Below, piece after piece: positions 27,869-46,671 of a stretch of 64,000 nt of DNA. Source of the DNA: Patescibacteria group bacterium (GTDB taxonomy: Bacteria > Patescibacteriota > Patescibacteriia > Patescibacteriales > UBA12465). The translations under genes and the position numbers were made by a program. The first letter of the stretch is position 1. Every line of letters starts with the position of its first letter. Under the pieces are notes generated by a model. It did not search any database, had not been told where the DNA came from, and saw only the letters and a list, made by a program, of their open reading frames with translations. The stretch covers positions 5,869 to 69,868 of the forward strand of contig JBAZNJ010000001.1 in NCBI GenBank assembly GCA_041649315.1. Reading direction: 5' to 3'.

Positions 27869-29401
27869 TTACTTTACGTCTTCAACGGAAATCTGGCGCA
27901 GGTTATCGTTAGTGATACCTAAGCCAAGATTGCGCATAATCGCGAAAGCGTCAGCCGGACGACCTAAATAATGTAATTTAAGATCGAGCGGATTAACGTA
28001 ATACGCTTCACCTTTAGCCTGGACTCTTAATAGAATCCGGCCGGCTAAACGGGACGGCGCCTTGCCGTTCCAGGAAGCATAATCTTTCTCACTAACGCCT
28101 AAGCCAAGCCCGCGCATGATGCCGAAAGCATCGGCCGGACGGCCTAAGTAATACTTAGCGGAATTAACCGGATTAACATACCAGGCCTCGCCTTTAGCTT
28201 GGACCTGTAAAAGAATCCGACCAGCTAAGCGTTTCGCCAAAGCGGCGTTAACTCTCTTAACCAAGCCTTTTTCCGCCATAACGAAAGCGTTTCTTACCGC
28301 ACTATCCATACCGACTTCGGCCGGAGTTTCGGTAATCACCGTCGGCTGATCAGCCGCGCCGCAAACTTTCTTGGTCGCTTCCTGCTGAGCCGCGGTCAAA
28401 GTACAATTGTTCGGCGTACTGGAAAGGACATTGCGATACTGGTAGCCGCCAAAGCAAGCCGCCGCATATTCACCATAAGTTACGCTCGTACAATAAGCCG
28501 CCGCTACCCGGCTACCGCCGGAAGAAGAGCTACCGGAGCTACTCGAAGAATAAGTCGCGAAATAAGAAGCTCGACAGGTATAAACCGTAGCATAGCCGCC
28601 GCTAACTACTACAGCCGTTGCCGGATCACTGCCGACACCAGAACTACAAGTATCCGTGGACGCTACAGTTAAACCGGTTGAAACCCAAGTTGAACCGCTA
28701 TCAGCACTTCTCTTGATATAAAGAGTAGTACCGTTAAGCGAAGAATCAACCGGGATCTTAACGGTTACCGGCGCGCTGAAATACAAAGTTTCGCTGGTCG
28801 CACCGAATTCAATCGCCCCCTTGACCGAAGCCGAGGAAGAAATCGTGGAAGCGGTAATCGAGCTTAACTTATCAGCGCTCGTTAAAGTCGTGGCATCAAA
28901 AGCTGTGCCGCCGCTATTGGTAATAACCGTGCCGCTCGGAATTAAGACCTGAACATCACCCGCCGTAGCCGTCGCCGTGAAAGCGATATTATCCGCGGCC
29001 GTTAACGAAGTAACTGCCGTCGGATCACTCCCACTTAAAGTAAACAGGGTCGGAACCGCCGAAGCGATGCTGGCCGCCGGGACTTCCTGGTAGGAAGTTG
29101 AGCCGACAGTTACGCTATCAGCGCTGGCGCGATAACCATAACCATAGCCATAGCCATAGGCGTCAGTCGCGGAAGTGGTGAAGTCGGTCTTATAACCATA
29201 CAAAGTACCACCGTCAAAACCGGAGCCGTAGCCGTAACCATAGCCGTAACCATAACCCCAACCGGCGCTGCCGGTCTGGCGCATAAATTGCGCGTACAAG
29301 TTCGGACCGAAAACCAAAGCAAAAACCGCTACGGCCAAAAAGCCAAAAATCGCGGTTGCCACCTTATTCTCGGAGAACAGAAAACCTTTAATTTTTTTCA
29401 T
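27869..29401 (-). CDS. secreted surface protein: signal/TM, Gly-Tyr repeats, Ser/Thr-rich region, two C-terminal ~60-aa repeat domains
   Basis: 510 aa. It contains WGYGYGYGYGYGSGF and AYGYGYGYGY, an SSSSSGSSSSGGS tract, and a duplicated LAGRILL(Q/R)VQAKGEA(W/Y)YVNP...YLGRPADAF(G/A)IMR.LGLG module. Confidence 0.8.
   Translation of the reverse strand: MKKIKGFLFSENKVATAIFGFLAVAVFALVFGPNLYAQFMRQTGSAGWGYGYGYGYGYGSGFDGGTLYGYKTDFTTSATDAYGYGYGYGYRASADSVTVGSTSYQEVPAASIASAVPTLFTLSGSDPTAVTSLTAADNIAFTATATAGDVQVLIPSGTVITNSGGTAFDATTLTSADKLSSITASTISSSASVKGAIEFGATSETLYFSAPVTVKIPVDSSLNGTTLYIKRSADSGSTWVSTGLTVASTDTCSSGVGSDPATAVVVSGGYATVYTCRASYFATYSSSSSGSSSSGGSRVAAAYCTSVTYGEYAAACFGGYQYRNVLSSTPNNCTLTAAQQEATKKVCGAADQPTVITETPAEVGMDSAVRNAFVMAEKGLVKRVNAALAKRLAGRILLQVQAKGEAWYVNPVNSAKYYLGRPADAFGIMRGLGLGVSEKDYASWNGKAPSRLAGRILLRVQAKGEAYYVNPLDLKLHYLGRPADAFAIMRNLGLGITNDNLRQISVEDVK
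27872..28234 (-). repeat. tandem duplication of a ~180-nt domain-coding unit inside the surface-protein gene
   Basis: The two C-terminal repeat domains are at 27872..28054 and 28055..28234. Their core (AGRILL..VQAKGEA.YVNP...YLGRPADAF.IMR.LGLG) is near-identical at protein level. Confidence 0.7.
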
Positions 29402-29595: not shown

Positions 29596-29622
29596 AAAAA
29601 GCCCTAAAAATAGGGCTTTTTT
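29596..29622. terminator. bidirectional rho-independent terminator ending the long envelope operon
   Basis: aaaaa-gcccta-aaaa-tagggc-tttttt. Confidence 0.65.
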
Positions 29623-29702: not shown

Positions 29703-30407
29703 TTATTCTCTCATCCCTGGACCGATAATCTCGTTCCCTTTCTCGCCTTCATCCGTTTTCTCGTCTTCTTCCGATTCTGTCCCTCTATCCCGACGCAGTT
29801 CCCTAATCTGAGTCAAAACCGTAATCACTAAAAAATAAAAGGCGGAAATCGCCGAGGACTCGGCTAAAATTTCCCGATTAGAAATCAAAAGAACCGGACA
29901 GGCGGCTAAAAAAACCAAAGCGGCCCCGGCGGCCCAGCGGCTATCTAGAATATAAACGAGCGAACAGGCGGCGTAAAACAAAACAACAAATTCCCAGGCA
30001 CTAACTCCTTTAAATAAACCCAAAGCGGCGATTAAAACAACAATTAAAACTTTTAGCCAGTCCTTTCTTTTAAACGCCTTGATCCGCGCTATTAATTTAA
30101 TCAGAAAACGTCCGAAAGGCCGGCTTAATAAACGAAGAAAATGCCGGAACCAGAAAAAAAATCTGCGGAAAGGCTCTATGGGCCGCGCCTCTTTCGGATG
30201 GAGTAAATTATAAGCCACGGCCGCTAAAATCGTTAAAATGATAAAAGCTCCATGCAAGCCCGGCCAATAAAAATAAGTACGAGCCGCGGGAAAGATAACC
30301 GCGAATAAAAGAACGGTAATATAAAAAATCAAGAAATAAGAATAATATTTTTTTATTTTTTTCGCCAGCTCCTGCCATAAGCCGGGCCAATTCATTTTAT
30401 CTTTCAT
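29703..30407 (-). CDS. hypothetical polytopic membrane protein with acidic C-terminal tail
   Basis: 234 aa with about 5 TM segments and the tail GTESEEDEKTDEGEKGNE. Its ATG overlaps the flippase TGA (ATGA). Confidence 0.7.
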   Translation of the reverse strand: MKDKMNWPGLWQELAKKIKKYYSYFLIFYITVLLFAVIFPAARTYFYWPGLHGAFIILTILAAVAYNLLHPKEARPIEPFRRFFFWFRHFLRLLSRPFGRFLIKLIARIKAFKRKDWLKVLIVVLIAALGLFKGVSAWEFVVLFYAACSLVYILDSRWAAGAALVFLAACPVLLISNREILAESSAISAFYFLVITVLTQIRELRRDRGTESEEDEKTDEGEKGNEIIGPGMRE

Positions 30408-31954
30408 AAAGTTTCTTTTTTAACGACTTCTGATTTAATAACTTCCGATACTATTTCTTCTTTAATAATTTCTTCCTTAATAATTCCCGAACCATTAATA
30501 TTCTTTTCTCCTGCACCCGCGCCTTGCCGCTCTTGAAAAAGTTTTATAAGCAAAATCAAATCAACTAAGCCGAAAACCGCGACTAAAGAAATAATGACCT
30601 GACGGAAATCAAACGGGATAAAAATCAGGACTAAAACTTCGGCAATCGCGCCAAGAGTCATAATCAACAAGCCGCGCCGACGCGCCAAGGCTAGAAAATA
30701 CTGTGCCAAAACATTCATTAAAGTTAATAATAAAATTGCTAAAGCAAATAAAGGCAAATAAGGCGCGGCGCTCAGATACTTTCCGCCAACCACGATCTTA
30801 ATCATAAACTCCGGCCAAAAAACAATAACTAAAAGAGCGGGAATCGTTAAGAGCGCCATCAGGCCCAAAGATTTTAAAAGCACCTTAAATCGCCGCCGCG
30901 TCCGATCATCTTTTAACCCGGCCAAGACCGGAAACATTACGGTCGGCACCGCTCCGCCGACAAAATAAATTATCCGGCCGACCGTCAACAGCGAGCCGTA
31001 AAAACCGGCTTCTTCCGGCGTAAAACTGGCTTTAACAAAAAGCATGTCAAAATTATAAAAAAACTGGCTTAAACCCGTGAACCATAAAACCAATAAAGCA
31101 TAAGGCGTCCAAACTCCGGTCCGGGAAATCTTGTTTTTAATTTCAGCTGAATCGTTTACTCGGACATCTATCCGGCTGTCTGCCTGAACGCCTGCCTGAG
31201 TGTCCGCCTGAACGCCTTCTAAGCCAGGCGCGCCAAACGGCAAAACAGAAGTATTTTGATCGGCCGCAATACTTTGACCAGCCACCGTCTTTTCACCAAG
31301 TGAATCATCCGCCTTTCGCCGGCCAAGCGCAGTAAAAGCCCGGCGGATATAATAGAAACTGATTACAAAAGCTAAAAGCGAAGTCCCGGCTAAAGACCAG
31401 GCCGCGCCAAGCAGGCCGCCGGCCAAACCGGCTACTAAAACCGCGGCTAAAACTAAACGAAAAGCCGATTCATATAAACCGAGCCAAGCTAAAGGCGCAA
31501 AAGCCTGAAGGCCGGTTAAGATAGCGCGATTAACCGTCAAGGGAAAAACATAAATAAAACATAAAGCGGCAATCGGTAAAATTTCCGGCAAAGAGATATT
31601 TAGTAAAACGCTAAGCGAACGGGAAAAAATCAAGATTAAAATTACTAAGACTAAGCCCAAAAGCGACAAACGGCCGGCGGCGCGGCGATGCAGACGAGAT
31701 AATTCTTCCGGCGAATCCGTTAATAAGGCCGTTTCCCGGGTCAAGGCAGTTTTGACCACGGCGGTAAGAATTCCTAAAATAGCGATAAAAGACAAGAGCG
31801 CCTGAAAATCGCCGTAAGCGCCGACGGATAAATAGCGCGATAAGATCGGATGGACTAAATAATTAAAGGCGGAAGCTAAAAAAGTCCCGACCGTTAAGAT
31901 AAAGGTGCCACGAACGAATTTATCCGACCAAAGATGTTTAAACCGAGTAAGCAT
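30404..31954 (-). CDS. MOP-superfamily (Wzx/MurJ-like) polysaccharide flippase
   Basis: 516 aa with 12 or more TMs in two halves, split by a hydrophilic insert (GVQADTQAGVQADSRIDV). The N-terminus FVRGTFILTVGTFLASAFNYLVHPILSRYL is typical of polysaccharide biosynthesis proteins. Confidence 0.8.
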   Translation of the reverse strand: MLTRFKHLWSDKFVRGTFILTVGTFLASAFNYLVHPILSRYLSVGAYGDFQALLSFIAILGILTAVVKTALTRETALLTDSPEELSRLHRRAAGRLSLLGLVLVILILIFSRSLSVLLNISLPEILPIAALCFIYVFPLTVNRAILTGLQAFAPLAWLGLYESAFRLVLAAVLVAGLAGGLLGAAWSLAGTSLLAFVISFYYIRRAFTALGRRKADDSLGEKTVAGQSIAADQNTSVLPFGAPGLEGVQADTQAGVQADSRIDVRVNDSAEIKNKISRTGVWTPYALLVLWFTGLSQFFYNFDMLFVKASFTPEEAGFYGSLLTVGRIIYFVGGAVPTVMFPVLAGLKDDRTRRRFKVLLKSLGLMALLTIPALLVIVFWPEFMIKIVVGGKYLSAAPYLPLFALAILLLTLMNVLAQYFLALARRRGLLIMTLGAIAEVLVLIFIPFDFRQVIISLVAVFGLVDLILLIKLFQERQGAGAGEKNINGSGIIKEEIIKEEIVSEVIKSEVVKKETL

Positions 31955-31974
31955 TTGATAATTGATATTTTTTT

Positions 31975-33756
31975 CTAATAATTTATTTCAAAAACCACTA
32001 AAGTTTCTGTTTCTAAAATTAAATTTAAATAACCTAACTTAGCTAACCAAAGATAATTAAGCCAATCTAATTCTTTGGCTAAAATAATATAACGGAAAGA
32101 TTCGCCATCCGGCAAGACCGGCGGACCGGATAAGCCCTCTTCCCTCATCCAGACGTCCACCGCGGCACTAACCGGATTTTGGCTATTATCATAAATTCCA
32201 CCCCATTCCATATTAGTTCCGGTCTGGACCGGACAGGAAAAAAACTGCGGCGCCGGATTGGCGATAATCCGGCCGGTCCAATTGAAACTCATGTACATGT
32301 GCCAGGGTAGAAACAAAATTCGATCGGAACAAGCTCGATTCTCCTTTGACCGGCTAAGTAATAATTCATTAATCTGATACCAATCTGCAGGATAAGGCGT
32401 TGGCCGAACCTGGCCGGCAAAACCAAAAATTAATAAAGGCGCCTGGGCAAAAATTATTAAAGCGAAAACCAAGGCAATAAGATGGCGACGAACAAGCGAC
32501 AAACGCGAAAAAAATCTGCTTAAACTTATACGCCGGACGGCCAAAGATAAATAAAACAAATAAATCGGAATAACCAGAGCGACGAATTTTTGCGGCTCGC
32601 GCAAACCGCGATAACCGGGTAAATTATCATGCAGCCAGAAAATTATTGGCGCGAATAATGGCGACTTGACCCCAACCGCCAAAATTACGCTCGCAAGATA
32701 AATAATAATCAAAGAAATGCTAAAAATCTTTTGTCGCCGGGAAGCGCGATAAAAGCTAAGATAGACTCCATATAAAATAAAAGGTAAAAGAATAACAAAG
32801 GCCTTTTGCCAGCCCGGCGTCGTAGCTAAATCCGCGTAGCGATTCTGATCCTGGCCCCAAAAGCCGCTCATCAAAACGACTTTAGTAAAAGTTTCGGCCG
32901 GAATATTCCCCGAAGTCTGGAAAGTGAATAAATCCTGGTGGCTGATTCCTTGTTCCACGAATTCAACTATGGACGATTGACCGGAAGCCATGGCAAAAAG
33001 CCAATTGGCATTAAGCGCGATAATAATCGCTCCGGCGACTAAAAGCTTAAGCCAAAAAAAGCGGCCAACCCGAGCCGAACGGACGGCTTTTCTTTTTAAA
33101 AATAGCGCTAGGAAAAAAATCAGATAAAGCGGCAAAAGGAAGAAAATAAAATGAAGGGCGAACATCAGAGTCAAACCGGTAAACATCGCCGCCAAGAATA
33201 ATTCCTTGGCTTTAAGCGTCCGCCAAAACTCAAAGAGATAAGCCGCCGTAAACAATAAAGCGCCGTAGGCAATTAAAACCCCAAACTGGCCATAAAGCGC
33301 CCGATCATAAACAAAGGGATTAAATAAAGCGAATAAGCTTAAAACAAAAACCAATCCGGCCGAAGGAACGGACGATGCCAGCTCTTTTTCGTCCGAAGAA
33401 AATTCTCTGGCCTCCTGTTTAACCGGAAAAAATTTCCCTGCCCCTTGTCCAGCTTGATATTTTAAAATCGCTTTGACCAACAAACGGCCGCCGAATAAAA
33501 TCAGGGCTAAAATAAGACCGATAAAAATCTTCTGAATAAAAGCCGAGGGAAGAAAATAATCTAAAAATTTCCAGATTAGATTCATTAAAAAAGATCCCCG
33601 GGTCCAATCCACGGGAACAATCGGTCCGCGGACGAAATCGGTAAAAAAAAGATAGCCGGATTTAAAAAACCAGGGCAGAATTATCGCCAGGATGACGAGC
33701 CAATAAGCGCCCTGAGCGGATAAGAATTTTTTAATTTTTTCTTGTATGGTTTTCAT
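31975..33756 (-). CDS. polytopic membrane protein, possible GT-C-type glycosyltransferase
   Basis: 593 aa with many TMs and a C-terminal soluble domain. The function is inferred only from architecture and context. Confidence 0.6.
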   Translation of the reverse strand: MKTIQEKIKKFLSAQGAYWLVILAIILPWFFKSGYLFFTDFVRGPIVPVDWTRGSFLMNLIWKFLDYFLPSAFIQKIFIGLILALILFGGRLLVKAILKYQAGQGAGKFFPVKQEAREFSSDEKELASSVPSAGLVFVLSLFALFNPFVYDRALYGQFGVLIAYGALLFTAAYLFEFWRTLKAKELFLAAMFTGLTLMFALHFIFFLLPLYLIFFLALFLKRKAVRSARVGRFFWLKLLVAGAIIIALNANWLFAMASGQSSIVEFVEQGISHQDLFTFQTSGNIPAETFTKVVLMSGFWGQDQNRYADLATTPGWQKAFVILLPFILYGVYLSFYRASRRQKIFSISLIIIYLASVILAVGVKSPLFAPIIFWLHDNLPGYRGLREPQKFVALVIPIYLFYLSLAVRRISLSRFFSRLSLVRRHLIALVFALIIFAQAPLLIFGFAGQVRPTPYPADWYQINELLLSRSKENRACSDRILFLPWHMYMSFNWTGRIIANPAPQFFSCPVQTGTNMEWGGIYDNSQNPVSAAVDVWMREEGLSGPPVLPDGESFRYIILAKELDWLNYLWLAKLGYLNLILETETLVVFEINY

Positions 33757-33793
33757 GAGTTATCAAAAACTAATTATCTAAATTTCATGACAA

Positions 33794-34930
33794 TCATTTC
33801 AAACTATTTAAAATCTCTAAAAGATTTTGTTTAGTCAAAAGCCGCGGATTATTTTTTACCCGATCGGGGTTAAATCCATTTTTAATAATTATCTTTATCC
33901 CGTCGCTATTTATTCCTAAATCACTTAAACTAATTTTCAACCCAACAGCCAACAATAAATCATTAATTCTTTGCTTAGCTTTTAAAACATCGGAAGCACC
34001 TAGAAGTTTGACTAAGTTGTTTATATTTTTTCTTACATATTCAACTCCTCTTTTGTCTACAACATCTTCGGAAGCAACCCGACTATTATAAACCAAAAAG
34101 CTCCCTAAGGTTAAAGCGACAGCCTGACCGTGGGCTACGCCAAAATATGAAGTAATGGGATAAGAAATCGCGTGGCAAGCCGTGGTTTCTGAAATATTAA
34201 TAGCGCGGCCGGCCAGATTAGCCGCCCGGCTCATCGCCAACCTGGATTTTTTATCAGGATTATTTACCGCTTTTTTAAAATTCTTTAATACCATCTTAAT
34301 CGCTTGAGCGGCATATCTTTTGGACTCCGGCGTAGAATTAACGCTCCAATATGATTCAATCGCCTGAGTTAAAGCGTCGGCGCCGGTTTCAGCCGTAATT
34401 TTCTTGTTCAAATTAAAAGTAAATTGAGGATCAATGATAGAACAATCTGGTAATATAAATTTATGTTTTAAAGAATATTTATTTTTACCAATATAAATTA
34501 CCGAAAAGCAGGTAGCTTCGCTACCAGTCCCAGCCGTAGTAGGGATTGTTATTAACTTTTTACCAGGGTTTACTATTTCTTTCTTTTTCAAAATATAATT
34601 TTCGGGAGAACAATTTTGAACAGCTAAAATATTTATAGACTTAGCAACATCAATTGCGCTCCCGCCACCAACAGCAATAATTATATCAGGATTATATTTT
34701 CTAAATAATTTTATTCCTCTTTTAATGTCAGCTAATTTTGGATTAGGAGAAAAATCAGTAAAATTAAAAACTGAATATTTTTTTAAAATCGGTTTTAATA
34801 TTCTTTCCGCTCCACAAAGCTTATATGAAGTCTTTCCGGATATTAAAAAAACTTTCTTCACTTTATTTTGGTGAAGATATTTATCTAAATTTTTAATTGA
34901 ATTTATGCCAATATAAATTTTCTGTGGCAT
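33794..34930 (-). CDS. group III iron-containing alcohol dehydrogenase; predicted phosphonoacetaldehyde reductase (FomC/PhpC-like role)
   Basis: AVGGGSAIDVAKS and the Fe-ADH His cluster region (ACHAISYPITSYFGVAHGQAV). It is directly downstream of Ppd. Confidence 0.7.
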   Translation of the reverse strand: MPQKIYIGINSIKNLDKYLHQNKVKKVFLISGKTSYKLCGAERILKPILKKYSVFNFTDFSPNPKLADIKRGIKLFRKYNPDIIIAVGGGSAIDVAKSINILAVQNCSPENYILKKKEIVNPGKKLITIPTTAGTGSEATCFSVIYIGKNKYSLKHKFILPDCSIIDPQFTFNLNKKITAETGADALTQAIESYWSVNSTPESKRYAAQAIKMVLKNFKKAVNNPDKKSRLAMSRAANLAGRAINISETTACHAISYPITSYFGVAHGQAVALTLGSFLVYNSRVASEDVVDKRGVEYVRKNINNLVKLLGASDVLKAKQRINDLLLAVGLKISLSDLGINSDGIKIIIKNGFNPDRVKNNPRLLTKQNLLEILNSLK

Positions 34931-34940
34931 TTTTATTTAT

Positions 34941-36068
34941 TTAGGTATTCTTAATAAACTTTATAAAATTTTTCTTATTATCAATCGGGCTAATATTCGG
35001 CCGACCCAAATCTTCTCTTGATAAGCTATTTATTCTTATTTCCAAAAAAGATGGACCAACGCTATCGTTTAATAATTTAAGACTATTTTTAATATCTTCT
35101 AGAGAGTTGGCTTGATAAACATTCTTATAACCACAAGCCTGGGCTAGAAGTTGCATGTCAACATTAAACCCAACCGTTGGCTGGCCGCCGACCGATTCAT
35201 GACAGCCGTTATTCAAAATTATATGATTAAAATTATGTAGCGCTTGAGAGCCGATAATCGCCAAAGATCCCATATGCATAATAAGCGCGCCGTCGCCGTC
35301 TAAACAATAAATTTTTCTATTTTTTTTCTCGCGAGCAATTCCTAAGGCGATGGAAGAAGAATGCCCCATTGAACCAACCGTTAAAAAATCCTTGTCATGC
35401 CCTTGGTGCCGGTAATCGCGATATTCAAAAAGTTCTCGCGAAGCTTTACCGGTCGTGGAAACAATAATGTCTTCCGGTGTCAAAGCGTCAACAATACATT
35501 TAATTGCTTCTTCCCGGGACACCGGATAATTATTGACCGGCTTATTCTGTAAAAAATATTTTTCAAAAGTGTCTTTTCTGACAAGCAAAACATAAGGAGC
35601 GCTTTTCTCTTTCATATAAACGCATGCTTTCTCTAGACATTTCTCCGCCTCATCTAGAGACGATGGCAAAATATCATAAGGAATAGACAGAGCCTCAAAT
35701 AATTTCTCGGTAACCTCCCCCTGTTTAATATGCTGGGGTTCATCTTTAATATTAGGCTCACCGCGCCAACCGACTACTATCAGCATCGGGATACTATATA
35801 CTTCCGGATCAACTAACGATACCAAGGGATTAACAGCGTTTCCGATACCGGAATTCTGCATATACACCAAGCCGATATTCCCGGTAGCGAGATAATGGCC
35901 GGCGGCTAAAGCGACGGCGTTACCTTCGTTGGCGCTGATGATATGATTTTCTCCGGCCCAGTCCATTAAATAAGAACAAAAATTCTTTAGTAAAGAATCC
36001 GGCACGCCAGTAAAAAAATCTATATTCTTTTCCAATAAACTTTGATAAAATTTTTCCGGATTAAGCAT
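34941..36068 (-). CDS. aepY: phosphonopyruvate decarboxylase
   Basis: N-terminus IDFFTGVPDSLLKNFCSYL and ThDP motif LDGDGALIMHMGSLAIIG...ILNNGCHESVGGQ. Length about 375 aa, as in Ppd/Fom2/AepY. Confidence 0.85.
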   Translation of the reverse strand: MLNPEKFYQSLLEKNIDFFTGVPDSLLKNFCSYLMDWAGENHIISANEGNAVALAAGHYLATGNIGLVYMQNSGIGNAVNPLVSLVDPEVYSIPMLIVVGWRGEPNIKDEPQHIKQGEVTEKLFEALSIPYDILPSSLDEAEKCLEKACVYMKEKSAPYVLLVRKDTFEKYFLQNKPVNNYPVSREEAIKCIVDALTPEDIIVSTTGKASRELFEYRDYRHQGHDKDFLTVGSMGHSSSIALGIAREKKNRKIYCLDGDGALIMHMGSLAIIGSQALHNFNHIILNNGCHESVGGQPTVGFNVDMQLLAQACGYKNVYQANSLEDIKNSLKLLNDSVGPSFLEIRINSLSREDLGRPNISPIDNKKNFIKFIKNT

Positions 36069-36069
36069 A

Positions 36070-37383
36070 TTATTTCCCGCCCGGGATTAAGGTTAAAATT
36101 TCTTTGATTGATAAACATTCATCTTCACATTCATAAGACCGTTCATTTAATAAAATTGATTTTGCGGTATTAACCATCGCCGGATAAGCGCTGCGCAATA
36201 AATGATTCGCATAAATTATAACATTCACTCCGGCTTCTATTAATTCTGTTTCATAAATTTTATTATAACTTGACGGAACCGCCACTAAGGGCACTTTTTT
36301 TTCAAATTTTTTATATTCTCGGCAAAATTCCAATATTTCATCAGGCTCTTTCTCCCGGCTATGAATCATTATCCCGTCCGCGCCGGCCTCAATATAAGCC
36401 CGGGCGCGCTTAACGGCATCATCTAAACCTTTTTTAAGAATAAGGCTTTCAATTCTGGCGATAATCATAAAATCATCGGTCACCTGTGCTTTTTTGCCCA
36501 TGGAAATTTTATGGCAAAAACTATCAATATTATCCTGAGTCTGCTCAACATCCGTTCCGAATAAAGAATTTTTTTTCAAACCGATCTTATCTTCAATAAT
36601 AACCGCCGAGACCCCCATTCGTTCCAAGGTTTTAACTCCGAAGACAAAATGTTCCGGAATTCCGCCAGTGTCGCCGTCAAAAATTATCGGCTTAGTCGTT
36701 ACCTCCATAATATCGTTAACCGTGGTTAAGCGGGAAGTCAAATCTACACATTCAATATCCGGCTTTCCTTTGGCGGTTGAATCCGTCAAACTACTAAGCC
36801 ACATGCCGTCAAACTCCTTGATTCCCTTTTCATCCTTAATTTTTAAATTATCAACTATCAACCCGGTCAGGCCGTTATGCGCTTCCATAATCCGCACCGC
36901 CGGCTTCACCTCCAACAATCTCTTCAGTCTTTTCATCCTTATCTCCGGCGTTGTCCCAATTTCATGCATTTTTTCATGCAAGGAGGTAGAGGAAATACCT
37001 TTAGTATAGGGTAGTTCCACTAATTCTCCGCCCCATTCTTTCAGGGCGGCAATAACCCGAGCGCGGGTTTCCTTCTGCGCCCCCTCTTTCCAATCATCAC
37101 CATGAACAACATAATCCGGCTTTAACTCCTTTAAATTAGAAACATAATCAAGAGTATCCTGAGGAATAACTTTGGCGACGCCTTTTAAATTTTCCACAAT
37201 CTGTTTCCTCTGATCATAAGTTAAAAACGGTAAGCGCTTATAGCTGGCGATTGCCTTATCCGTTAACAAACCGACCACGACTTCGCCGATTTCTTTGGCG
37301 CGATTTATTATATTCAAATGGCCGGGATGAATAAGGTCAGCACTCATCCCGACATAAACGACTTTTTTCTGGTTATCAGGCAT
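36070..37383 (-). CDS. pepM: bifunctional cytidylyltransferase / phosphoenolpyruvate mutase (Fom1-like fusion)
   Basis: N-terminal roughly 130 aa: [24 protein letters not shown] (HxGH cytidylyltransferase). C-terminus: [21 protein letters not shown] and the PEP-mutase-specific EDKxxxxxNS ([12 protein letters not shown]). Confidence 0.88.
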
Positions 37384-37399
37384 AGAATTAAACTTTGAA

Positions 37400-38119
37400 T
37401 TATTTATAACCCCTTCTTAATTGACTCGCTAAACCTTTAAATGTAAATATAAATAAAAACAAGTCTTTTAGTAATAAAATTAAAACAAACAAGAATAATT
37501 TATTAAAAACAACAAGACATGCTATAAGAGCACAGGAGAATCCTCGATCCCATTTTATATATTTTCTAAGATCAATATTCGAAATAAATTTTGTAATTCT
37601 TCTTAAATTATTCACCGTGCTATTATTTCCCTCCCCATTTACCTTATTATCAATATATAAAGATAAATAGGTGATAATCAAAAAAACTACATACAAATAA
37701 ATTAACAAAGAACCTTGACTAGAAACTAAATAGTAACCATGAATAATCGCTCCAACTAAAATAACATCGGATACCCTGTCTAAAAATGGGTCTAAAAATG
37801 CTCCAAATTTAGACTTTCTGTTAGTAAGTCTGGCGACCTCTCCGTCTGACATGTCGAGAATGGAAGCAAAAAAATAAAAAACTAAACCTAAAACATTATT
37901 AGGATACCCTCCAAGAAAAAACCAATACGCGGCACCCAAATTCATAATAAATGAAAAAAACGTTATCTTATTTGGGGAAATATCAAAAGAAGCAAAAACC
38001 CAGGAAAAATATATAGATATCTTTCTAAATATAAAAACATTAAAAAACCCTTCAGATAAACCATCCTTAACTGAAGACTGTTTGTAAACTTCTTTTAAAT
38101 CCTTTTTTAATATTTTCAT
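37400..38119 (-). CDS. CDP-alcohol phosphotransferase family membrane enzyme
   Basis: Complete motif [27 protein letters not shown] (DGx2ARx8Gx3Dx3D). About 6 TMs. Confidence 0.85.
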
Positions 38120-38149
38120 TTTTTATCTATAACTAAGTGCTTTAAGTAG

Positions 38150-40744
38150 TTAATTATTTTTCACTCTCTTCAATAAGCCCCAGCCAAAACATCCCAAACA
38201 GCTCAACAGAACAGCCCCCGATACAAATGAACCTAATATAAAAAACCTCTGCGGCCAAAATTCAATTACCAGCTCAAAATCATAACTGCCGTCGGGATTC
38301 TTAACACATTTTATATTATCAGCGCAAATCTCCTCCGGATTGATGAACCAAGAATTAGCATAGCCGTTAACCATTAAATGATTCTCGTTATTATTAATCG
38401 GTTTTTTAAACCAGGTTTCATAAAAACGGCCGGACGTTAAATTATCATTTTGAATCGTATCCTGAAAATTCTTGGAAACAAAATCAATCTTATAGGGTTC
38501 ATTATAATCTAAAACTTCCTTATTATTTTCCCATTTAATATGTTTGATATTCTTCTCTTCAAAGTCTCCTAAAGTAGAAATATATCCCTGGTTAATAAAT
38601 TCTTTTAATTCATTAGCATCGGCCTGATCCTCATCATTGCCGTCTAAAATCTTATAATCAGTTTCATTAAAATCAATATCTTTTTTCTTATAATCAGCTA
38701 AATAGCTTTTCCAGCCCTCATGAAAGGACTCGCTAAAAACCAAAGGGAAATCTTCCGTGGCGCCATGGACAACCACGCGGTATTTAGTCGGATTTATTTT
38801 TTTGAATTCAAGTACTGGCACTTTACTTATTACCTCTTTTTGTAGTTCATTATAAAACATTGGAGAGAATGCTGTATCTACTGTATTGAATGAAAAATTG
38901 GCCATAATATTATCTCGAGTATTATTGAAATATATAGCCAACCTAATGTCGCTGTTTTCTTGCAAAACTATTTCCGGCAAAATTTCTAAATCTTTAGGAG
39001 TAACAAAAATAATCTCAGGCGCATAAAAATGAGGTAAAAAAACTCTATTTTGAAAAATATAAATATTGTCAAAACTTTTATATTTATTAATATAATGTTC
39101 TCCCTCTAAAGACTTTATAAAAATCTCGGAATTATCATTTAAAGGATCATCTATATCTAAATTAAGAATTAAATACTTAATGTTAATTAAATTTAATACT
39201 CCTCCTAATTCCATAAATCGCATTTCTGCTAGAATATTATTCAATTCTTTAGAAATACGTTGGGGCGACCCCAGACCACTTTGATAAAAAGTGATACTAC
39301 CGGGATGGAATGAATAAATGGAAAAAAGATTTCTTGCCCCGCGAAAAATACCATTGAATTCAAGATTATTTTTTATTTCCATGACTTCGCCAAGAGGTAA
39401 ATAAAGAATCTTACCGTCTAGCTTTAAATCATTCGCCAAATTCTCTACTTGAAAATTCCCTTTCGGGAAATTATAAGTTCGCAATCGAATATCCGAGCCA
39501 AACTTAGGATCACCAACTATATATCCTAAAAAAAACGGTAAAGTATTTATAATAGCTGAAAAACACAAAATAAATGATAAAACTATTAAATACTTCTTCC
39601 TGGATTGAAATAAAAATTGAAGTAATAATATAAACAAAACCACATATGCCAATGAAGATAAAATTGAAAATCTGGCTACATCTCTTATTAGATTAGAAAA
39701 AGGAATTTCCGCAATCAAGCCTGGCCCAATTGTAAATAAAAGGGGGGGTATTAAATATATAAAAACTAAAGAAATTACTATCTTTTTATTCCTCAAAAAT
39801 AACAATGATAAAATTATTATTATCGGTTCTAAAAAAGAAAAAAATTCAAGAAATTTCGGATAACTGACTTCATACTGATAATTTACTACACTTCCCCACG
39901 ACCGTAGAAGATTAAGATAATTTAAACGAACCCACGTCCCCCTACTCATCTCATTAGTTACCAAATCGGATCCCAAAACGCTCGACGCAGGGCTAACAAA
40001 CAAGGGGATTAACCACATAGCATGTAAACCTAGCCCGACGATAAAGACAATTGCAAGAGATCTACTATATACCCAAAAAGTTTTTTTGTTATTAATTAGA
40101 AAGAAAGACAACATTAACAAGACTAAAGGGTACCAAATAATACTCTGGGATTGAATAATTGCTATGGCGTATAAAAACCCGGAAATTAGAGAATAACGAA
40201 TTTTATTTTCCAAAACCGACCTGATAAAAAATAAAATAATTATTGGTAGAATGGCTAAGGAAAACAAAACATACGTCCAGCCCATAATAGAATAGTTAAA
40301 AAAAACAGGGGTAGTAATAAAAACGAGCCCACCAAATAAAGATATCCATTTATCACATTTCAAAAATCTGGCCAACGAATACATAGAGCATCCGCCTAAA
40401 ACAAAAAGTCCCAACAACCATAATTTTAAAATAAGCTGCCCGCCCAAACCCACTAATGACAAAATTTTTACCAAACCCTGAAACCATAATGCAATCGAAA
40501 ATGGTTGTCTGCCACCTAGTAAATTATTTTGGTTTGTCCATGTAGTAAATCCATTGGAAAAATAAGCTTGAATCTGTTGGTTGGTAAAAGGAAGACTCCA
40601 ATCACTTCCAATAATTACCCCGGGCGAAAATAAAACTCCACGTAAAAAAATTACTCCAAAAAAAATAAAAAACAAAACTGGAAAAATCTCTATAAAGATC
40701 TTTCTTAATGATTCGGCTATTTTGGAATCCAAAAATTTTAACAT
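38150..40744 (-). CDS. very large polytopic membrane protein with extracytoplasmic C-terminal domain (possible GT-C glycosyltransferase/polymerase)
   Basis: The ORF-track start at 40747 is a TTG, and the adjacent ATG at 40744 is preferred. It has about 14 N-terminal TMs, a roughly 400-aa soluble region and a final C-terminal TM. The sequence is AT-rich. Confidence 0.7.
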   Translation of the reverse strand: MLKFLDSKIAESLRKIFIEIFPVLFFIFFGVIFLRGVLFSPGVIIGSDWSLPFTNQQIQAYFSNGFTTWTNQNNLLGGRQPFSIALWFQGLVKILSLVGLGGQLILKLWLLGLFVLGGCSMYSLARFLKCDKWISLFGGLVFITTPVFFNYSIMGWTYVLFSLAILPIIILFFIRSVLENKIRYSLISGFLYAIAIIQSQSIIWYPLVLLMLSFFLINNKKTFWVYSRSLAIVFIVGLGLHAMWLIPLFVSPASSVLGSDLVTNEMSRGTWVRLNYLNLLRSWGSVVNYQYEVSYPKFLEFFSFLEPIIIILSLLFLRNKKIVISLVFIYLIPPLLFTIGPGLIAEIPFSNLIRDVARFSILSSLAYVVLFILLLQFLFQSRKKYLIVLSFILCFSAIINTLPFFLGYIVGDPKFGSDIRLRTYNFPKGNFQVENLANDLKLDGKILYLPLGEVMEIKNNLEFNGIFRGARNLFSIYSFHPGSITFYQSGLGSPQRISKELNNILAEMRFMELGGVLNLINIKYLILNLDIDDPLNDNSEIFIKSLEGEHYINKYKSFDNIYIFQNRVFLPHFYAPEIIFVTPKDLEILPEIVLQENSDIRLAIYFNNTRDNIMANFSFNTVDTAFSPMFYNELQKEVISKVPVLEFKKINPTKYRVVVHGATEDFPLVFSESFHEGWKSYLADYKKKDIDFNETDYKILDGNDEDQADANELKEFINQGYISTLGDFEEKNIKHIKWENNKEVLDYNEPYKIDFVSKNFQDTIQNDNLTSGRFYETWFKKPINNNENHLMVNGYANSWFINPEEICADNIKCVKNPDGSYDFELVIEFWPQRFFILGSFVSGAVLLSCLGCFGWGLLKRVKNN

Positions 40745-40750
40745 CAAAAA

Positions 40751-41572
40751 TTACTTCTTAGAATTACTTAAACCCACTTTTGTTATTTCCGCTCCAAGAT
40801 CCCGATAAAAAATTGGGCCCACTCTAGGCAAGCAACCCAATAAAGAAAATAATTTAATTATTACGCTTGGGCTAGAATTAAAAAGCCACACTTTCCCATT
40901 AAAACCCAACCGATCAATAAGATTACTAAAGTATTCTTTTGACCATTTAAAATAGTGCTCATCATGAAAAATAGACCCCGTATTTAAAACCCTAAATACC
41001 AATACACCTAACCAATCGGAATTATCAGTATACACTCTTACCGTATCCTTGCATACTCTAAAATGTTCCTTAATCATTTCTGTCGGAAATAAATTGTGTT
41101 CGATAACATAAGCGCTCCTCACTATGTCAAAAGAATTATTTTTAAAAGGCAGCAGCTCCGCTGAAGCCAGAACAAAATTTTTAGGAAGAGGGTCAGGAAT
41201 ATACACGTCAACATTAAAATCACCCTGGGCTTTGCCTCCGCAACCTACATCCAACATAGTTTTCTTCACTTTTTTATCTACTACCCTCCCCGAGCCCATC
41301 CCAAACCTTATAAGATTAACGAAAAAATTTGGGGTCCATTTTCTGCGGCCAGGTCGCCAGCGCCCCGTATTCTCCATAGTTTCTGTTATAATCCCTAAAT
41401 CTTTGATTTTTTCATAACCACGCAAACCATCTGGCAAAAAATCAGCCACACAACCCTTTATAACTGGGTAATGACGTTGACATTTTTTACACTCAAAATA
41501 ATCATTGCCTTGCAAAATAACCTCGCTATGATCATAAGGGCAGACCAATTTATTAATAATTTCTTCATTCAT
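40751..41572 (-). CDS. class I SAM-dependent methyltransferase with N-terminal Trm112-like zinc ribbon
   Basis: CPYDHSEV...CKKCQRHYPVIKGCVADFLP (zinc ribbon) and LDVGCGGKAQGDFNVD (motif I). Confidence 0.8.
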   Translation of the reverse strand: MNEEIINKLVCPYDHSEVILQGNDYFECKKCQRHYPVIKGCVADFLPDGLRGYEKIKDLGIITETMENTGRWRPGRRKWTPNFFVNLIRFGMGSGRVVDKKVKKTMLDVGCGGKAQGDFNVDVYIPDPLPKNFVLASAELLPFKNNSFDIVRSAYVIEHNLFPTEMIKEHFRVCKDTVRVYTDNSDWLGVLVFRVLNTGSIFHDEHYFKWSKEYFSNLIDRLGFNGKVWLFNSSPSVIIKLFSLLGCLPRVGPIFYRDLGAEITKVGLSNSKK

Positions 41573-41582
41573 ATATTTTTAA

Positions 41583-42428
41583 TTAATATTCTCCAGTAAA
41601 ATGCACCCCCTTAGCAGTAAAACTAAGATGTTTCAACATCCACGCCTCAACTTCATAAATTATATTAATTGGGAATAATAATAATAACCAAAGTTTATTC
41701 AAAACAATCCAAAGATTACTAATCTTGCCTTGGACTCCGGAACCACAAGAGCTCCGAAATTTTCTTTGCACACTTGAATTAAAAATAGAAATAAATTTTT
41801 TTGGCAAATAAAGGGTGAGTAAATGAAATAATTGGGAAATCCAATGGTCACTATACGTAATTACAGTTTTCGAAAAATATGGACAAACAAGGTTCTTTAT
41901 ATCTTTTTGAGTAAAATATTGAATATGACCAAAATTATTTCTCGTAAAATCTCGAAGATTTAAAAAATTGGTTACTCTTAAAAATTTATCCAATGTAAAC
42001 GGTTGCCCCTCACAAGGTACATAAAAATGAAATAGCCCAGATGGCGATAAAACCCTTTTAACCTCAATAATTGCTTGTTGTGGGTTACTTAAATGTTCTA
42101 AAACATCCATAATTACAACGGCGTCAAAAAAGTTGTCTTGAAATGGTATTTTTTCAGCGCTACCCACCAAAAAGGTCCCCTCAATAGATTTATCTTCTTT
42201 TGCAATACAAATTGCCGTATGACTTATATCTACTCCGTACAATATAGCATCTGGACGTAACCTTGAAATTTTCTTTAAAAATCTTCCTTGCCCCATGCCA
42301 ATTTCTAAAATCCTAGGGTTCTTTAAATTTTTAATCGCATTAATAAATCTTTTAGTTCTCTTGTCCATCTTAAAATCAAAAGCGGTGGAAACGCCCTGTG
42401 AATTTTTTTCATAATTATACTCAACCAT
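41583..42428 (-). CDS. class I SAM-dependent methyltransferase
   Basis: RILEIGMGQGRFL (motif I), FFDAVVIMDVLEHL, LSPSGLFHFYVP. Confidence 0.8.
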   Translation of the reverse strand: MVEYNYEKNSQGVSTAFDFKMDKRTKRFINAIKNLKNPRILEIGMGQGRFLKKISRLRPDAILYGVDISHTAICIAKEDKSIEGTFLVGSAEKIPFQDNFFDAVVIMDVLEHLSNPQQAIIEVKRVLSPSGLFHFYVPCEGQPFTLDKFLRVTNFLNLRDFTRNNFGHIQYFTQKDIKNLVCPYFSKTVITYSDHWISQLFHLLTLYLPKKFISIFNSSVQRKFRSSCGSGVQGKISNLWIVLNKLWLLLLFPINIIYEVEAWMLKHLSFTAKGVHFTGEY

Positions 42429-42429
42429 A

Positions 42430-43656
42430 CTAAATTGTGTTATATATTATTTCTAAATCTCTTTTGGCAATATCAAACCAATTAAATTGTTCGGCAAAAA
42501 TTATACTTTTATTGCGTAGTTGTCTGCGAATATCCTCATCGATCAAAAGAAATTTAATTTTATTAATTACAGAATTAATATCTCCAATTTTATTTTTTTG
42601 CAGAATATCTTCTCTATATATATGATTATAAATCGCTAAATCATATGTAATAGCAGGTAAACCACACGCTAAAGCCTCCATTAAACTAATCCCCCAACTT
42701 TCATCAGCGTTTACTTTACTTAAAAAAATAAAAATTTTACTACTTCTAAAAATTTCATATTTTTTATTACCACTAACATATCCAAAATAATCAATATTTT
42801 CCTCCAAATTACCATCCTTGATTTTATTTAAAAATTTTTTTACAACGTCTTCGCGCCCTGTACCCATAACCGCTAATTTAGCATTTGGAATAATCTTAAT
42901 TATTCCCGACCAAACAGACAAAAGATCAAATATACCTTTATTCTCAGTGATTCTTCCCATATAAACTCCATCGTATATTTTTTCTTTTCTAGCTAAAACT
43001 TTATTAATTTTATCCATAAACAATCCGTTTTGCGTTAAAAAAATTTTTTTTTCATCAATACCTTGTTTAACTATTTCTTTTTTTAACTCTGGATTAACAG
43101 TAAAAATAATTGAAGTAAAACGACTTATAATTTTAACTACAAACTTAGATTCTAAATGCGTAATTGTATTTATAAAAATATTGCCGGAACGTTGAGATGG
43201 TTTCGGGACTATGCTATCTATCATTAAAATAAAATGACGACATTTTCCAAATAACTTTAAAAATAAAATCGGTATTACGTCCACTAATAAAGCCGAGTTA
43301 GCATAACAAACATCAAATTTTGGTATATTTTTAAAAAGTAAAATCGGAGAAAATAATACTCTAATAAAATAAGAAAAAATTATACCAAATCCAGATGAGC
43401 GCATTTTAGAAGAAAAGGGTAATGTAATAATTTTTACTTTTTTTGAATTTGTACTTATACTACTCATCTCACTGCGAGTCGCATCTTTAATTAACTGCGG
43501 AATTAATAAAAAAACTTCACTTTTTTCAATCACCCACCCCAAACATCTACCAATAGTTTTATCAGAACAATAAACACCGACACCACCTAAATTAACATAC
43601 AACATTTTTAACTTTTTTTTTGAAATATTAAGTTCTGAAATTATATTTTTATTCAT
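42430..43656 (-). CDS. glycosyltransferase family 1 (GT4-type)
   Basis: C-terminus ADESWGISLMEALACGLPAITYDLAIYNHIY matches the GT-B E-x7-E region. Confidence 0.8.
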   Translation of the reverse strand: MNKNIISELNISKKKLKMLYVNLGGVGVYCSDKTIGRCLGWVIEKSEVFLLIPQLIKDATRSEMSSISTNSKKVKIITLPFSSKMRSSGFGIIFSYFIRVLFSPILLFKNIPKFDVCYANSALLVDVIPILFLKLFGKCRHFILMIDSIVPKPSQRSGNIFINTITHLESKFVVKIISRFTSIIFTVNPELKKEIVKQGIDEKKIFLTQNGLFMDKINKVLARKEKIYDGVYMGRITENKGIFDLLSVWSGIIKIIPNAKLAVMGTGREDVVKKFLNKIKDGNLEENIDYFGYVSGNKKYEIFRSSKIFIFLSKVNADESWGISLMEALACGLPAITYDLAIYNHIYREDILQKNKIGDINSVINKIKFLLIDEDIRRQLRNKSIIFAEQFNWFDIAKRDLEIIYNTI

Positions 43657-44350: not shown

Positions 44351-44351
44351 C

Positions 44352-45245: not shown

Positions 45246-45310
45246 GATTTTGTTATTATTTATTGTTAGGCTCCTAATAGCACTTCCGACTACACTTTTT
45301 AACTCATTCT

Positions 45311-46237: not shown

Positions 46238-46261
46238 GTCTTCTTTAATATTTTCATAAAA

Positions 46262-46644: not shown

Positions 46645-46671
46645 AAAGAGTAAAATTTTAATTAAAATTAG

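Follow-up and report, generated by a model that had tools for sequence, protein, structure and literature searches.

A predicted 2-hydroxyethylphosphonate module coupled to a CDP-alcohol phosphotransferase gene in a surface-glycan cluster of a Patescibacteria genome

The DNA analysed here (64,000 nucleotides, hereafter the window; positions 5,869–69,868 of contig JBAZNJ010000001.1) is a chromosomal stretch of a Patescibacteria metagenome-assembled genome. At 33794–38119, it carries four adjacent genes, which encode a cytidylyltransferase (CyTase)–phosphoenolpyruvate (PEP) mutase (PepM) fusion, a phosphonopyruvate decarboxylase (Ppd), a group III metal-dependent alcohol dehydrogenase (ADH), and a CDP-alcohol phosphotransferase. 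The first three resemble Fom1, Fom2, and FomC of the fosfomycin pathway of Streptomyces wedmorensis, in which a PF01467-family CyTase is likewise placed N-terminal to PEP mutase and is accompanied by a Ppd and a group III ADH, and in which 2-hydroxyethylphosphonate (HEP) and its cytidylylated form, CMP-HEP, are made. The formation of CMP-HEP from CTP and HEP by Fom1 is cited in PMC6697681. The Fom3, FomD, and Fom4/HppE steps of fosfomycin synthesis have no counterpart in the scans of the window cluster, and the genes of the window lie, unlike those of the fosfomycin cluster, in a glycan operon together with a membrane transferase. CMP is a transient handle in the fosfomycin pathway, whereas here it is the proposed leaving group of a transfer reaction.

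Outside antibiotics, the only experimentally characterised outcome of this type of module, as far as the citing papers report, is the HEP-containing phosphonoglycan of a Glycomyces sp. (2014; cited in PMC8942020 and PMC13576164), and HEP-bearing glycans are, on the same citations, already known from actinomycetes. The Glycomyces locus (L040 in our numbering of loci) encodes a CyTase–PepM that is 66% identical to that of the window, followed by Ppd and an ADH of the same family (34% identity), but its candidate transferases are weak TagF-like and LicD/TPR proteins rather than a CDP-alcohol phosphotransferase, and the organism is an actinomycete. Clusters that combine a CMP-phosphonate with a CDP-alcohol phosphotransferase family enzyme have already been described for 2-aminoethylphosphonate (AEP): in the 'Burkholderiales CDP-OH family' and Nostoc clusters, PepM–Ppd, a nucleotidyltransferase, and a CDP-alcohol phosphatidyltransferase occur together, and the predicted logic, a CMP-phosphonate donor serving a membrane transferase, is the same as that proposed here (PMC8942020, PMC5987646). 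These clusters contain the aminotransferase AEPT, a LicC-type PntC (PF12804), and a 2-oxoglutarate oxygenase, and their predicted product is a phosphonolipid (PMC8942020, PMC5987646), whereas the window has the ADH/HEP branch, a PF01467 CyTase, and a glycan cluster, with neither AEPT nor PntC. The best sequence and fold matches of the transferase are AF2299 and IPCT-DIPPS of Archaeoglobus fulgidus (PDB 4o6m and 4mnd), which share with it a juxtamembrane helix, six transmembrane (TM) helices, and the signature motif. Both are functionally tied to a cytidylyltransferase and use soluble CDP-alcohols as donors, but their identity to the window protein is ~27%, a cytidylyltransferase-like domain is fused to the archaeal transferase itself, and DIPPS is known to make a soluble precursor of an osmolyte.

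Set against these systems, we favour on balance the reading that the window cluster makes CMP-HEP and that the CDP-alcohol phosphotransferase then moves its phosphonate part onto a membrane-anchored glycan intermediate within a surface-glycan operon. The PepM domain would convert PEP to phosphonopyruvate, which Ppd would decarboxylate to phosphonoacetaldehyde, pulling the unfavourable equilibrium forward; a PhpC-type reductase would then yield HEP, and the Fom1-type CyTase domain would join HEP and CTP to form CMP-HEP. In the six-TM transferase, CMP-HEP would take the place of a CDP-alcohol, so that, on the cytoplasmic side of the membrane, a hydroxyl of the acceptor would receive the hydroxyethylphosphonyl group and CMP would be released. 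The acceptor would most likely be the hydrophilic head group of a membrane-anchored glycan intermediate, which would be assembled by the neighbouring GT2 and GT4 glycosyltransferases and methyltransferases; its export and delivery would fall to the Wzx flippase and to the GT-C and MmpA-like membrane proteins. What the sequences show directly are the enzyme families, their catalytic residues, the gene order, and the comparative associations; the substrates are predicted. None of the single enzymes is new, and the HEP trio, too, is known, widespread, and already covered by automatic annotation.

The four genes are transcribed from the minus strand in the order CDP-alcohol phosphotransferase (38119 to 37400), CyTase–PepM (37383 to 36070), Ppd (36068 to 34941), and ADH (34930 to 33794), separated by 16, 1, and 10 bp, respectively. 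An earlier sequence-only reading of the window had described four tightly packed, co-directional genes, and the open reading frame (ORF) check recovered all four on the minus strand at exactly its coordinates. Every motif string quoted in that reading is present in the translations, and the profile searches it proposed gave matches far beyond chance: those for PF01467, PEP_mutase, Fe-ADH, and CDP-OH_P_transf all clear the gathering scores, and both thiamine diphosphate (ThDP) enzyme domains were found. The genes are part of a larger co-directional minus-strand block (46237 to 29703), within which neighbouring genes are spaced by -8 to 37 bp and which ends in a 301-bp gap after the gene at 29703–30407. 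This gap contains a palindromic hairpin (29596–29621, unstranded) with an 11-pair stem, AAAAAGCCCTAAAAATAGGGCTTTTT, and A/T-run flanks, which as a consensus match is a likely terminator of the block. It is the only notable terminator-like site in the promoter/terminator scan, which was uninformative inside the block (25 terminator-like sites vs 20.2 ± 4.8 expected). Housekeeping genes are found on both flanks (e.g. genes for CysS, HisS, MraW, a penicillin-binding protein, and a Mur ligase). The G+C content drops from ~0.44 to 0.37 in the phosphonate genes and reaches 0.28–0.34 in those upstream of them. An assembly chimera at this shift was ruled out, because Logan contig L001, from an independent assembly, is 100% identical over 16,347 bp (window 31037–47383), and the gene order is thus not a product of misassembly. 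The sole Rfam matches in the window are two tRNA genes (24802–24875 and 25576–25659, minus strand), both outside the block.

The fusion protein (437 aa; 36070–37383, minus strand; CTP_transf_like 6.5e-17 and PEP_mutase 5.9e-56 in Pfam) consists of a Fom1-type CyTase domain (aa 5–142; 36958–37371) with an HxGH motif (HPGH) at aa 19–22 and a PEP mutase domain (aa 150–435; 36079–36936). The latter scores 413.9 bits on the PEP mutase equivalog TIGR02320 (cut-off 319.55) and falls below the cut-offs of both rival models, PrpB (96.9 bits) and phosphonopyruvate hydrolase (141.4 bits). The EDKxxxxxNS motif, which has been used as a criterion for PEP mutases (PMC6697681), is located at aa 264–273 (36565–36594), and fusions of PF01467 to PepM make up 23.6% of PEP mutases (PMC6697681). 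Residues S197/L199, D209, D236/D238, E264, K270, N272, R310, and H341 are all present and align with S46/L48, D58, D85/D87, E114, K120, N122, R159, and H190 of Mytilus PepM, respectively. We take D58, D85, D87, E114, K120, N122, R159, and H190 of the Mytilus enzyme to have catalytic or Mg-binding roles. The PepM assignment made from motifs is thus upheld by an equivalog-level score and an intact set of catalytic residues, and an isocitrate or methylisocitrate lyase identity of the domain is ruled out (414 bits on TIGR02320 vs 97 on prpB).

The CyTase domain (62.4 bits on PF01467) matches the crystallised CyTase domain of Fom1 (PDB 5x3d) with E = 9.3e-62 and 67% identity, in agreement with the Fom1-like module described from the sequence alone, and reaches just 58.8 bits on the TagD model TIGR01518 (cut-off 165.4). 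It is the sole TagD-like sequence in the window. A derivation of the fused domain from the TagD that partners relatives of the transferase was ruled out, since its identity to TagD proteins is 33–38%, compared with 67% to Fom1. Six positions discriminate fusions found with the ADH from those found with AEPT, and the window protein has the Fom1/HEP residue at all six (I25, L40, A44, Q58, Y80, and S132), whereas AEPT-type fusions carry V25, H40, V44, E58, Q80, and I132. The mean CyTase identity to Fom1 is 63% in ADH-type and 52% in AEPT-type fusions. A database protein of 512 aa found on eight contigs (P0160) is a natural fusion of a Fom1-type CyTase (65% identity) to an ADH of the present type (56%), and this fusion provides a Rosetta-stone link between the making of HEP and its cytidylylation. 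Together, these comparisons argue strongly that the domain is a CTP:2-HEP cytidylyltransferase, predicted to yield CMP-HEP.

Ppd (375 aa; 34941–36068, minus strand) is a ThDP enzyme with TPP_enzyme_N and TPP_enzyme_C domains, and both the FFTGVPDSLLK and GDG...NN motifs are present in its translation. It covers positions 1–360 of the 360 of TIGR03297 with 495.2 bits (cut-off 312.5), so that the phosphonopyruvate decarboxylase suggested by the motifs passes the equivalog cut-off. The ADH (378 aa; 33794–34930, minus strand; Fe-ADH 7e-43, with ADH_Fe_C) contains GGGSAIDVAK, is assigned to the PhpC-type phosphonoacetaldehyde reductases within the group III metal-dependent ADHs, and is present in NCBI, as the exact protein, under the name phosphonoacetaldehyde reductase. 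In PhpC, HEP is bound by Lys157, Thr256, Tyr264, and Arg349; of these, Tyr264 never varies among PhpC enzymes, and sulfoacetaldehyde reductases have Phe at this position (PMC13576164). In an alignment of 44 Ppd-adjacent homologues of the window ADH, K151, T249, and Y257 are invariant (44/44) and R357 is nearly so (42/44). The first three share the PhpC offsets from the metal ligands, matching Lys157, Thr256, and Tyr264; the correspondence of R357 to Arg349 is approximate. The metal ligands of the window ADH are D185, Q189, H253, and H267. Q189 stands for His195 of PhpC, and this position is Gln in 27 and His in 17 of the 44 homologues; a Gln ligand (Gln196) is also found in the Zn-dependent sulfoacetaldehyde reductase (PMC13576164). 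The HEP-binding residues, including the PhpC-specific Tyr, and the NCBI name lend support to the earlier placement of this Fe-ADH in the HEP branch.

The CDP-alcohol phosphotransferase (239 aa; 37400–38119, minus strand) scores 67.2 bits on PF01066 (cut-off 22, E 2.7e-18). Its signature, Dx2DGx2ARx8Gx3Dx3D, claimed to be complete in the sequence-only reading, was indeed found complete at aa 89–114 (37778–37855), and the eight signature residues are all invariant in the subfamily alignment. The architecture is a juxtamembrane helix followed by approximately six TM helices, and the AlphaFold2 (AF2) model has a pLDDT of 86.3. A Foldseek search with this model retrieved AF2299 (5.8e-6, TM-score 0.61, 27% identity), DIPPS (1.3e-5), and PIPS (3.3e-5), with PgsA (E = 0.34) and CHPT1 (E ~1) as distant matches. 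A profile of the subfamily searched against the PDB gave the same leading matches: AF2299 (5.8e-26), DIPPS (5.6e-15), PIPS (7e-13), CEPT1 (2e-6), and PgsA (5e-3). Among the PgsA, PssA, PIPS, AIPS, and ClsA models, none scores the protein above its equivalog cut-off, with 75.3 bits for AIPS (cut-off 180), 59.5 for PIPS (170), 27.8 for PgsA (109.1), and 26.6 for PssA (107). These matches place the transferase, at the level of sequence, in an AF2299-like subfamily, which comprises 17 proteins with E<1e-29 and is well delimited, the next matches being at 1e-9. AF2299 and DIPPS have cytidylyltransferase-like domains and a small hydrophilic donor pocket and process no lipids, and the AF2299 pocket has been demonstrated to hold the glycerol of CDP-glycerol (PMC4634129).

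What the transferase is fed with is suggested by its relatives. In all nine other loci that encode subfamily members and were surveyed here, a small stand-alone PF01467 cytidylyltransferase gene adjoins the transferase gene or is one gene away, and the stop and start codons of the paired genes often overlap. All three of the cytidylyltransferases tested score above the cut-off of the TagD equivalog TIGR01518 (177–190 bits vs 165.4), one TagD-type locus additionally encodes GpsA, and PepM, Ppd, and ADH genes are present in none of the nine. These TagD-coupled Patescibacteria clusters (L002–L006 and L087–L092), which are known from genes alone, contain the same transferase subfamily at 32–58% identity but differ from the window in having a stand-alone TagD, in one case with GpsA, and no PepM, Ppd, or ADH; their donor should be CDP-glycerol. 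Where the flanks suffice, the clusters share a common gene grammar, namely Wzx, GT2, GT4, GT2, S-adenosylmethionine (SAM) methyltransferases, a giant relative of the 865-aa membrane protein of the window, one small protein, and one of ~550 aa that resembles MmpA. Because TagD stands beside the orthologous transferases and the HEP module occupies the place of TagD in the window, the simplest reading of the locus is a module swap, in which a glycan system fed by CDP-glycerol elsewhere would be fed by CMP-HEP here. In evolutionary terms, the HEP/CMP-HEP module would have replaced TagD, and a phosphonate ester would have replaced a glycerophosphate decoration. A sequence difference in the transferase itself accompanies the exchange: the 16 other subfamily members, including the TagD-coupled orthologues, have an invariant KWDGGF, whereas the window protein alone has KWDRGF (R192; 37544–37546). 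At least nine of the 16 Gly192 members are paired with a small stand-alone cytidylyltransferase, and position 192 is the only near-invariant column at which the phosphonate-coupled transferase deviates, so that G192R may possibly represent a change of specificity. The coupling of CMP-HEP to the transferase, as put forward in the sequence-only reading, gains support from the cytidylyltransferase pairing and from the kinship with AF2299 and DIPPS. We consider the assignment of CMP-HEP as the donor to be moderately supported.

The same pairing bears on the annotation of the subfamily as phospholipid synthases. JGI labels several members phosphatidylglycerophosphate synthase, and the GpsA encoded at one related locus is the maker of glycerol-3-phosphate, the acceptor of PgsA. 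With such reversed, PgsA-like roles, CDP-diacylglycerol would be the donor and the hydroxyl of HEP (glycerol-3-phosphate in the relatives) the acceptor, the product would be phosphatidyl-HEP, and the cytidylyltransferase would serve some other purpose. This is very unlikely, as PgsA is the most distant of the solved relatives by profile, fold search, and model score, and as the adjacency of a cytidylyltransferase (10/10 loci, a true TagD where tested) would be left unexplained. We therefore rejected a PgsA-type phospholipid synthase, given how remote PgsA is by profile and fold and how invariably a cytidylyltransferase accompanies the transferase.

The distribution of the module was surveyed in 80 loci (L007–L086; one genome per species) with a fusion 65–93% identical to that of the window, whose flanking ORFs were clustered and annotated by representatives, with TagF-like genes counted by hidden Markov model (HMM) searches. 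These loci include Falkowbacteria, DPANN archaea, Clostridium, Bacteroidales, and Glycomyces sp. NRRL B-16210. Ppd is encoded downstream of the fusion in 63 of the 80, and the orthologue cluster of the ADH is present in 47, almost always directly after Ppd. AEPT is present in 18 loci, 16 of which also have a LicC-type PntC. AEPT clusters with both a LicC-type PntC and a PF01467–PepM fusion are found in L020, L033, L053, L055, and others, mostly from Clostridium. In the window itself, no AepZ-type aminotransferase had been noticed in the sequence-only reading; consistent with this, tblastn with AEPT and PntC sequences from related loci gave no match in the 64 kb, and neither AEPT (PF00266) nor LicC-type PntC (PF12804) appeared in the Pfam scans of the cluster.

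TagF-like genes occur in 20 of the 80 loci and a nearby CDP-alcohol phosphotransferase gene in 11. Sixteen of the 47 ADH loci have a TagF-like gene (PF04464), seven have a CDP-alcohol phosphotransferase gene (PF01066), and none has both, whereas neither type was found in any of the 18 AEPT loci. When only loci with full 10-kb flanks are counted, a transferase is present in 17 of 25 ADH loci and in 0 of 15 AEPT loci (Fisher p = 1.3e-5, a value inflated by the relatedness of the loci). Such mutual exclusion of TagF-like and CDP-alcohol phosphotransferase genes would be expected if the two were alternative enzymes acting on a single donor. The sequence-only reading had proposed a survey of related genomes for the four genes together, and the contiguous CyTase–PepM–Ppd–ADH–CDP-alcohol phosphotransferase arrangement does recur in two DPANN archaea (L015 and L072, one Pacearchaeota and one Woesearchaeota locus). 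The route had also been called unusual: the coupling itself does not appear in the literature searched, but its rarity was overstated, given the trio in 47 of the 80 loci and a CDP-alcohol phosphotransferase gene nearby in 11. In an Aminicenantes locus (L016, 9998–12986), CyTase–PepM is followed by an LPG_synthase_TM-family protein and a convergently encoded CDP-alcohol phosphotransferase, and neither Ppd nor ADH was detected nearby; this arrangement suggests a different, possibly lipid-directed phosphonate route.

The nature of the acceptor is less firmly indicated than that of the donor. A glycan intermediate is weakly favoured over diacylglycerol because in 10/10 loci the transferase gene lies among glycan genes with a GT-C gene as its partner and because the protein is without the extra C-terminal TM helices of lipid-acceptor members. 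In a Kennedy/CEPT1-type route, the hydroxyethylphosphonyl group of CMP-HEP would instead end up on diacylglycerol or on another lipid alcohol obtained by scavenging, and the product would be a phosphonolipid. In eukaryotes, CMP-AEP is turned into phosphonolipids by members of the CDP-alcohol phosphotransferase family, to which the window transferase belongs, and Patescibacteria depend on the remodelling of acquired lipids. The AEP clusters with PntC and a CDP-alcohol phosphotransferase family enzyme are, moreover, predicted to make phosphonolipids (PMC8942020, PMC5987646). However, CEPT1-like lipid-acceptor members have three to four additional C-terminal TM helices (PMC4634129), compared with approximately six in total in the 239 aa of the window protein, which also matches CEPT1 far less well than AF2299 (2e-6 vs 5.8e-26) and CHPT1 with a Foldseek E of only ~1. 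With the gene next to a GT-C gene rather than lipid genes in 10/10 loci, we regard a phosphonolipid product as unlikely.

A free metabolite or precursor is the other outcome to be weighed against glycan decoration: CMP-HEP and a small alcohol (a sugar phosphate, glycerol phosphate, or HEP) would give a soluble phosphodiester or phosphonodiester. AF2299 and DIPPS, the closest characterised relatives by both sequence and fold, process no lipids, and the acceptors of six-TM members are typically soluble (PMC4634129). The retention of the gene in Wzx/GT/GT-C clusters in 10/10 loci and its overlap with or abutment to the GT-C gene in L004, L087, and L089 point away from such a product. To our knowledge, DIPP-type compatible solutes are known from hyperthermophiles and not from organisms of the present kind. 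A soluble product appears, on these grounds, rather improbable.

Several observations weigh against the transfer of CMP-HEP to a surface glycan as we propose it. Small soluble acceptors are characteristic of the six-TM members of the family (PMC4634129), which would fit a soluble product, and the literature searched contains no bacterial CDP-alcohol phosphotransferase known to act on a CMP-phosphonate. The closest relative of the HEP module (L007, with a 93% identical fusion) has a TagF-like enzyme and no CDP-alcohol phosphotransferase gene; distant members of the latter family are encoded a few kb upstream in L008 and L009. With 191.5 bits, the ADH falls short of the 423.7-bit cut-off of TIGR03405 (Phn_Fe-ADH/PsrA, PhpC-related), and the AdhE model gives it a marginally better score (201 bits). 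We judged TIGR03405 to be narrow, because PhpC-type enzymes are highly divergent, with a mean identity of 39% and a minimum of 27% (PMC13576164). The six discriminating CyTase residues may reflect phylogeny, as the sampled AEPT loci are mostly from Clostridium and other Bacillota. Finally, the Fom1-type CyTase is also fused to PepM in AEPT clusters, alongside a LicC-type PntC, so that family membership alone does not settle the substrate of the fused domain.

The genes surrounding the four are largely those of a glycan pathway, and the flippase, GT-C-like protein, glycosyltransferases, and methyltransferases listed as neighbours in the sequence-only reading were all recovered with Pfam, NCBIfam, or Foldseek. 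Directly upstream of the transferase gene, 38150–40747 (minus strand, as are all genes described in this paragraph) encodes a polytopic membrane protein of 865 aa without a Pfam match. Its AF2 model (pLDDT 77.6, pTM 0.80) has the GT-C arabinofuranosyltransferase AftD (6w98) as top PDB match in Foldseek (E = 7e-10), followed by STT3, AglB, PglB, and AftA at E<=1e-4, and a distant homologue (P0064) carries PF11847; the protein is thus a putative AftD-like glycosyltransferase with, as modelled, a GT-C membrane fold. Giant relatives of this protein are encoded directly after the CDP-alcohol phosphotransferase gene in L004, L087, L088, and L089, and relatives of its gene are translationally coupled to the transferase gene in related loci. 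Farther upstream, Pfam and NCBIfam identify SAM methyltransferases at 40751–41572, 41583–42428, and 43649–44350, a GT4 at 42430–43656, and a GT2 at 44352–45317, with gaps of -8 to 10 bp between these genes; MT233 and the GT2 are 60% and 40% identical to proteins of the TagD-type locus L005, respectively. Additional glycan genes are located at 51059–55111.

Downstream of the ADH gene are genes for a polytopic, MmpA-like membrane protein of 593 aa (31975–33756, minus strand; NF053599 5.6e-27, 94.5 bits, below the cut-off of 210) and a Wzx/MOP-type flippase of 516 aa (30404–31954, minus strand; Polysacc_synt 51.8 vs 28.2 bits, Polysacc_synt_3 41.7 vs 23). The last gene of the block (29703–30407, minus strand), which overlaps the flippase gene by 4 bp, encodes a small membrane protein of 234 aa. 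MmpA-like relatives with 50–54% identity hold the same position after the ADH gene in L007–L009, in which the flippase gene is also syntenic and the order of the downstream ADH, MmpA-like, and Wzx genes is preserved. MmpA-like proteins are also encoded in the TagD-type loci L004 and L005 (26–27% identity; 148.6 bits on the MmpA model for that of L004). L008 and L009 encode homologues of the 234-aa protein, and L004 and L005 encode less similar ones. Just beyond the downstream end of the cluster, 27869–29401 (minus strand) encodes a 510-aa protein without a family match, which has an N-terminal hydrophobic segment resembling a signal or anchor, GYGYGYGYG repeats, a long Ser/Thr/Ala-rich region, and two C-terminal repeats of ~50 aa. 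Homologues follow the matching clusters of L008 and L009 on their downstream side, and the protein may be a candidate glycosylated surface protein.

Upstream of the block, a co-directional gene (47966–49489, minus strand) encodes a B12-binding radical SAM protein, whose best match is HpnJ-like but far below cut-off. This gene is relevant to a fosfomycin-like outcome, in which CMP-HEP would be transient, for example undergoing a Fom3-like B12-radical SAM methylation and then hydrolysis, and the transferase would be unrelated. The architecture of the HEP genes matches Fom1, Fom2, and FomC, and in another CyTase–PepM locus (L034) a 47%-identical orthologue of the radical SAM gene immediately precedes an orthologue (56% identity) of the window GT2 gene at 44352–45317. 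However, the radical SAM protein is below every curated cut-off (e.g. 65 vs 600 bits for the PhpK family) and shares just 22% identity with the radical SAM family encoded close to other fusions, B12-radical SAM genes are found in just 7 of the 80 fusion loci, and an AAA_14/DUF4143 gene intervenes between the gene and the block. The absence of an HppE epoxidase and a FomD hydrolase, stated in the sequence-only reading, agrees with the Pfam scans of the cluster ORFs, which contain no cupin, HppE, or FomD-type family; Fom3, FomD, and Fom4/HppE were likewise not found in the family scans of these ORFs, which involved no direct comparison with reference sequences. No epoxidase, FomD-type hydrolase, kinase, resistance, or peptide-ligase gene was detected in the cluster scans. 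A fosfomycin-like small molecule is highly improbable on this evidence, and the pathway was rejected for its lack of later-step genes, with the radical SAM gene retained as a caveat: its product could modify the phosphonate, which would count against the pathway as we draw it, or a sugar, although the evidence is thin. Decoration of the envelope rather than production of an antibiotic, as first suggested from the window alone, is supported by the comparative evidence from the related loci.

The glycan region is interrupted by genes for an AAA_14/DUF4143 ATPase and an AbiEii-type toxin with a small partner ORF (46715–47884 and 49492–50950, minus strand), and an AAA_14/DUF4143 gene is also found inside the related cluster L087. 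The presence of these genes and the low G+C content at 38–48 kb suggest a recombination-prone, variable locus.

In the literature searched, no paper links Patescibacteria with PEP mutase or glycerophosphotransferases with phosphonates, and CMP-HEP appears there only as a fosfomycin intermediate, not as a transfer donor. Neither a specific pairing of the HEP branch with CDP-glycerol-type transferases nor the replacement of TagD by an HEP module in a Patescibacterium was encountered in the same literature. If the proposed reading is wrong, the locus remains an ordinary, already auto-annotated HEP biosynthesis cluster. Most of the bacterial capacity for phosphonates is thought to serve the decoration of cell surfaces. 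The steps that follow cytidylyl activation are still called enigmatic (PMC6697681), and the locus and its relatives offer a concrete, testable candidate for the missing transferase of the HEP branch, namely a small membrane protein with CDP-glycerol-linked orthologues. They also reveal a split across phyla, with HEP modules accompanied by CDP-glycerol-type transferases and AEP modules by LicC-type enzymes.

More tentatively, CMP-HEP may stand in for CDP-glycerol in general, in which case enzymes whose usual task is to add glycerophosphate (AF2299-like in the window, TagF-like in sister loci) would add hydroxyethylphosphonyl units to surface glycans; since the hydroxyl of HEP would stay unreacted, even polymerisation into a teichoic-acid-like poly(HEP) chain is conceivable. 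In that case, the window would document a direct replacement of TagD by the HEP module, the enzymes long sought for the transfer step of phosphonate surface tailoring would have candidates, and G192R would be a possible specificity switch. If the proposed transfer does take place, ultra-small symbiotic bacteria and DPANN archaea would have traded a hydrolysable phosphodiester decoration for one with a carbon–phosphorus bond, which would bear on the stability of their envelopes, on phage and host recognition, and on the origin of the HEP found in environmental high-molecular-weight organic phosphorus.

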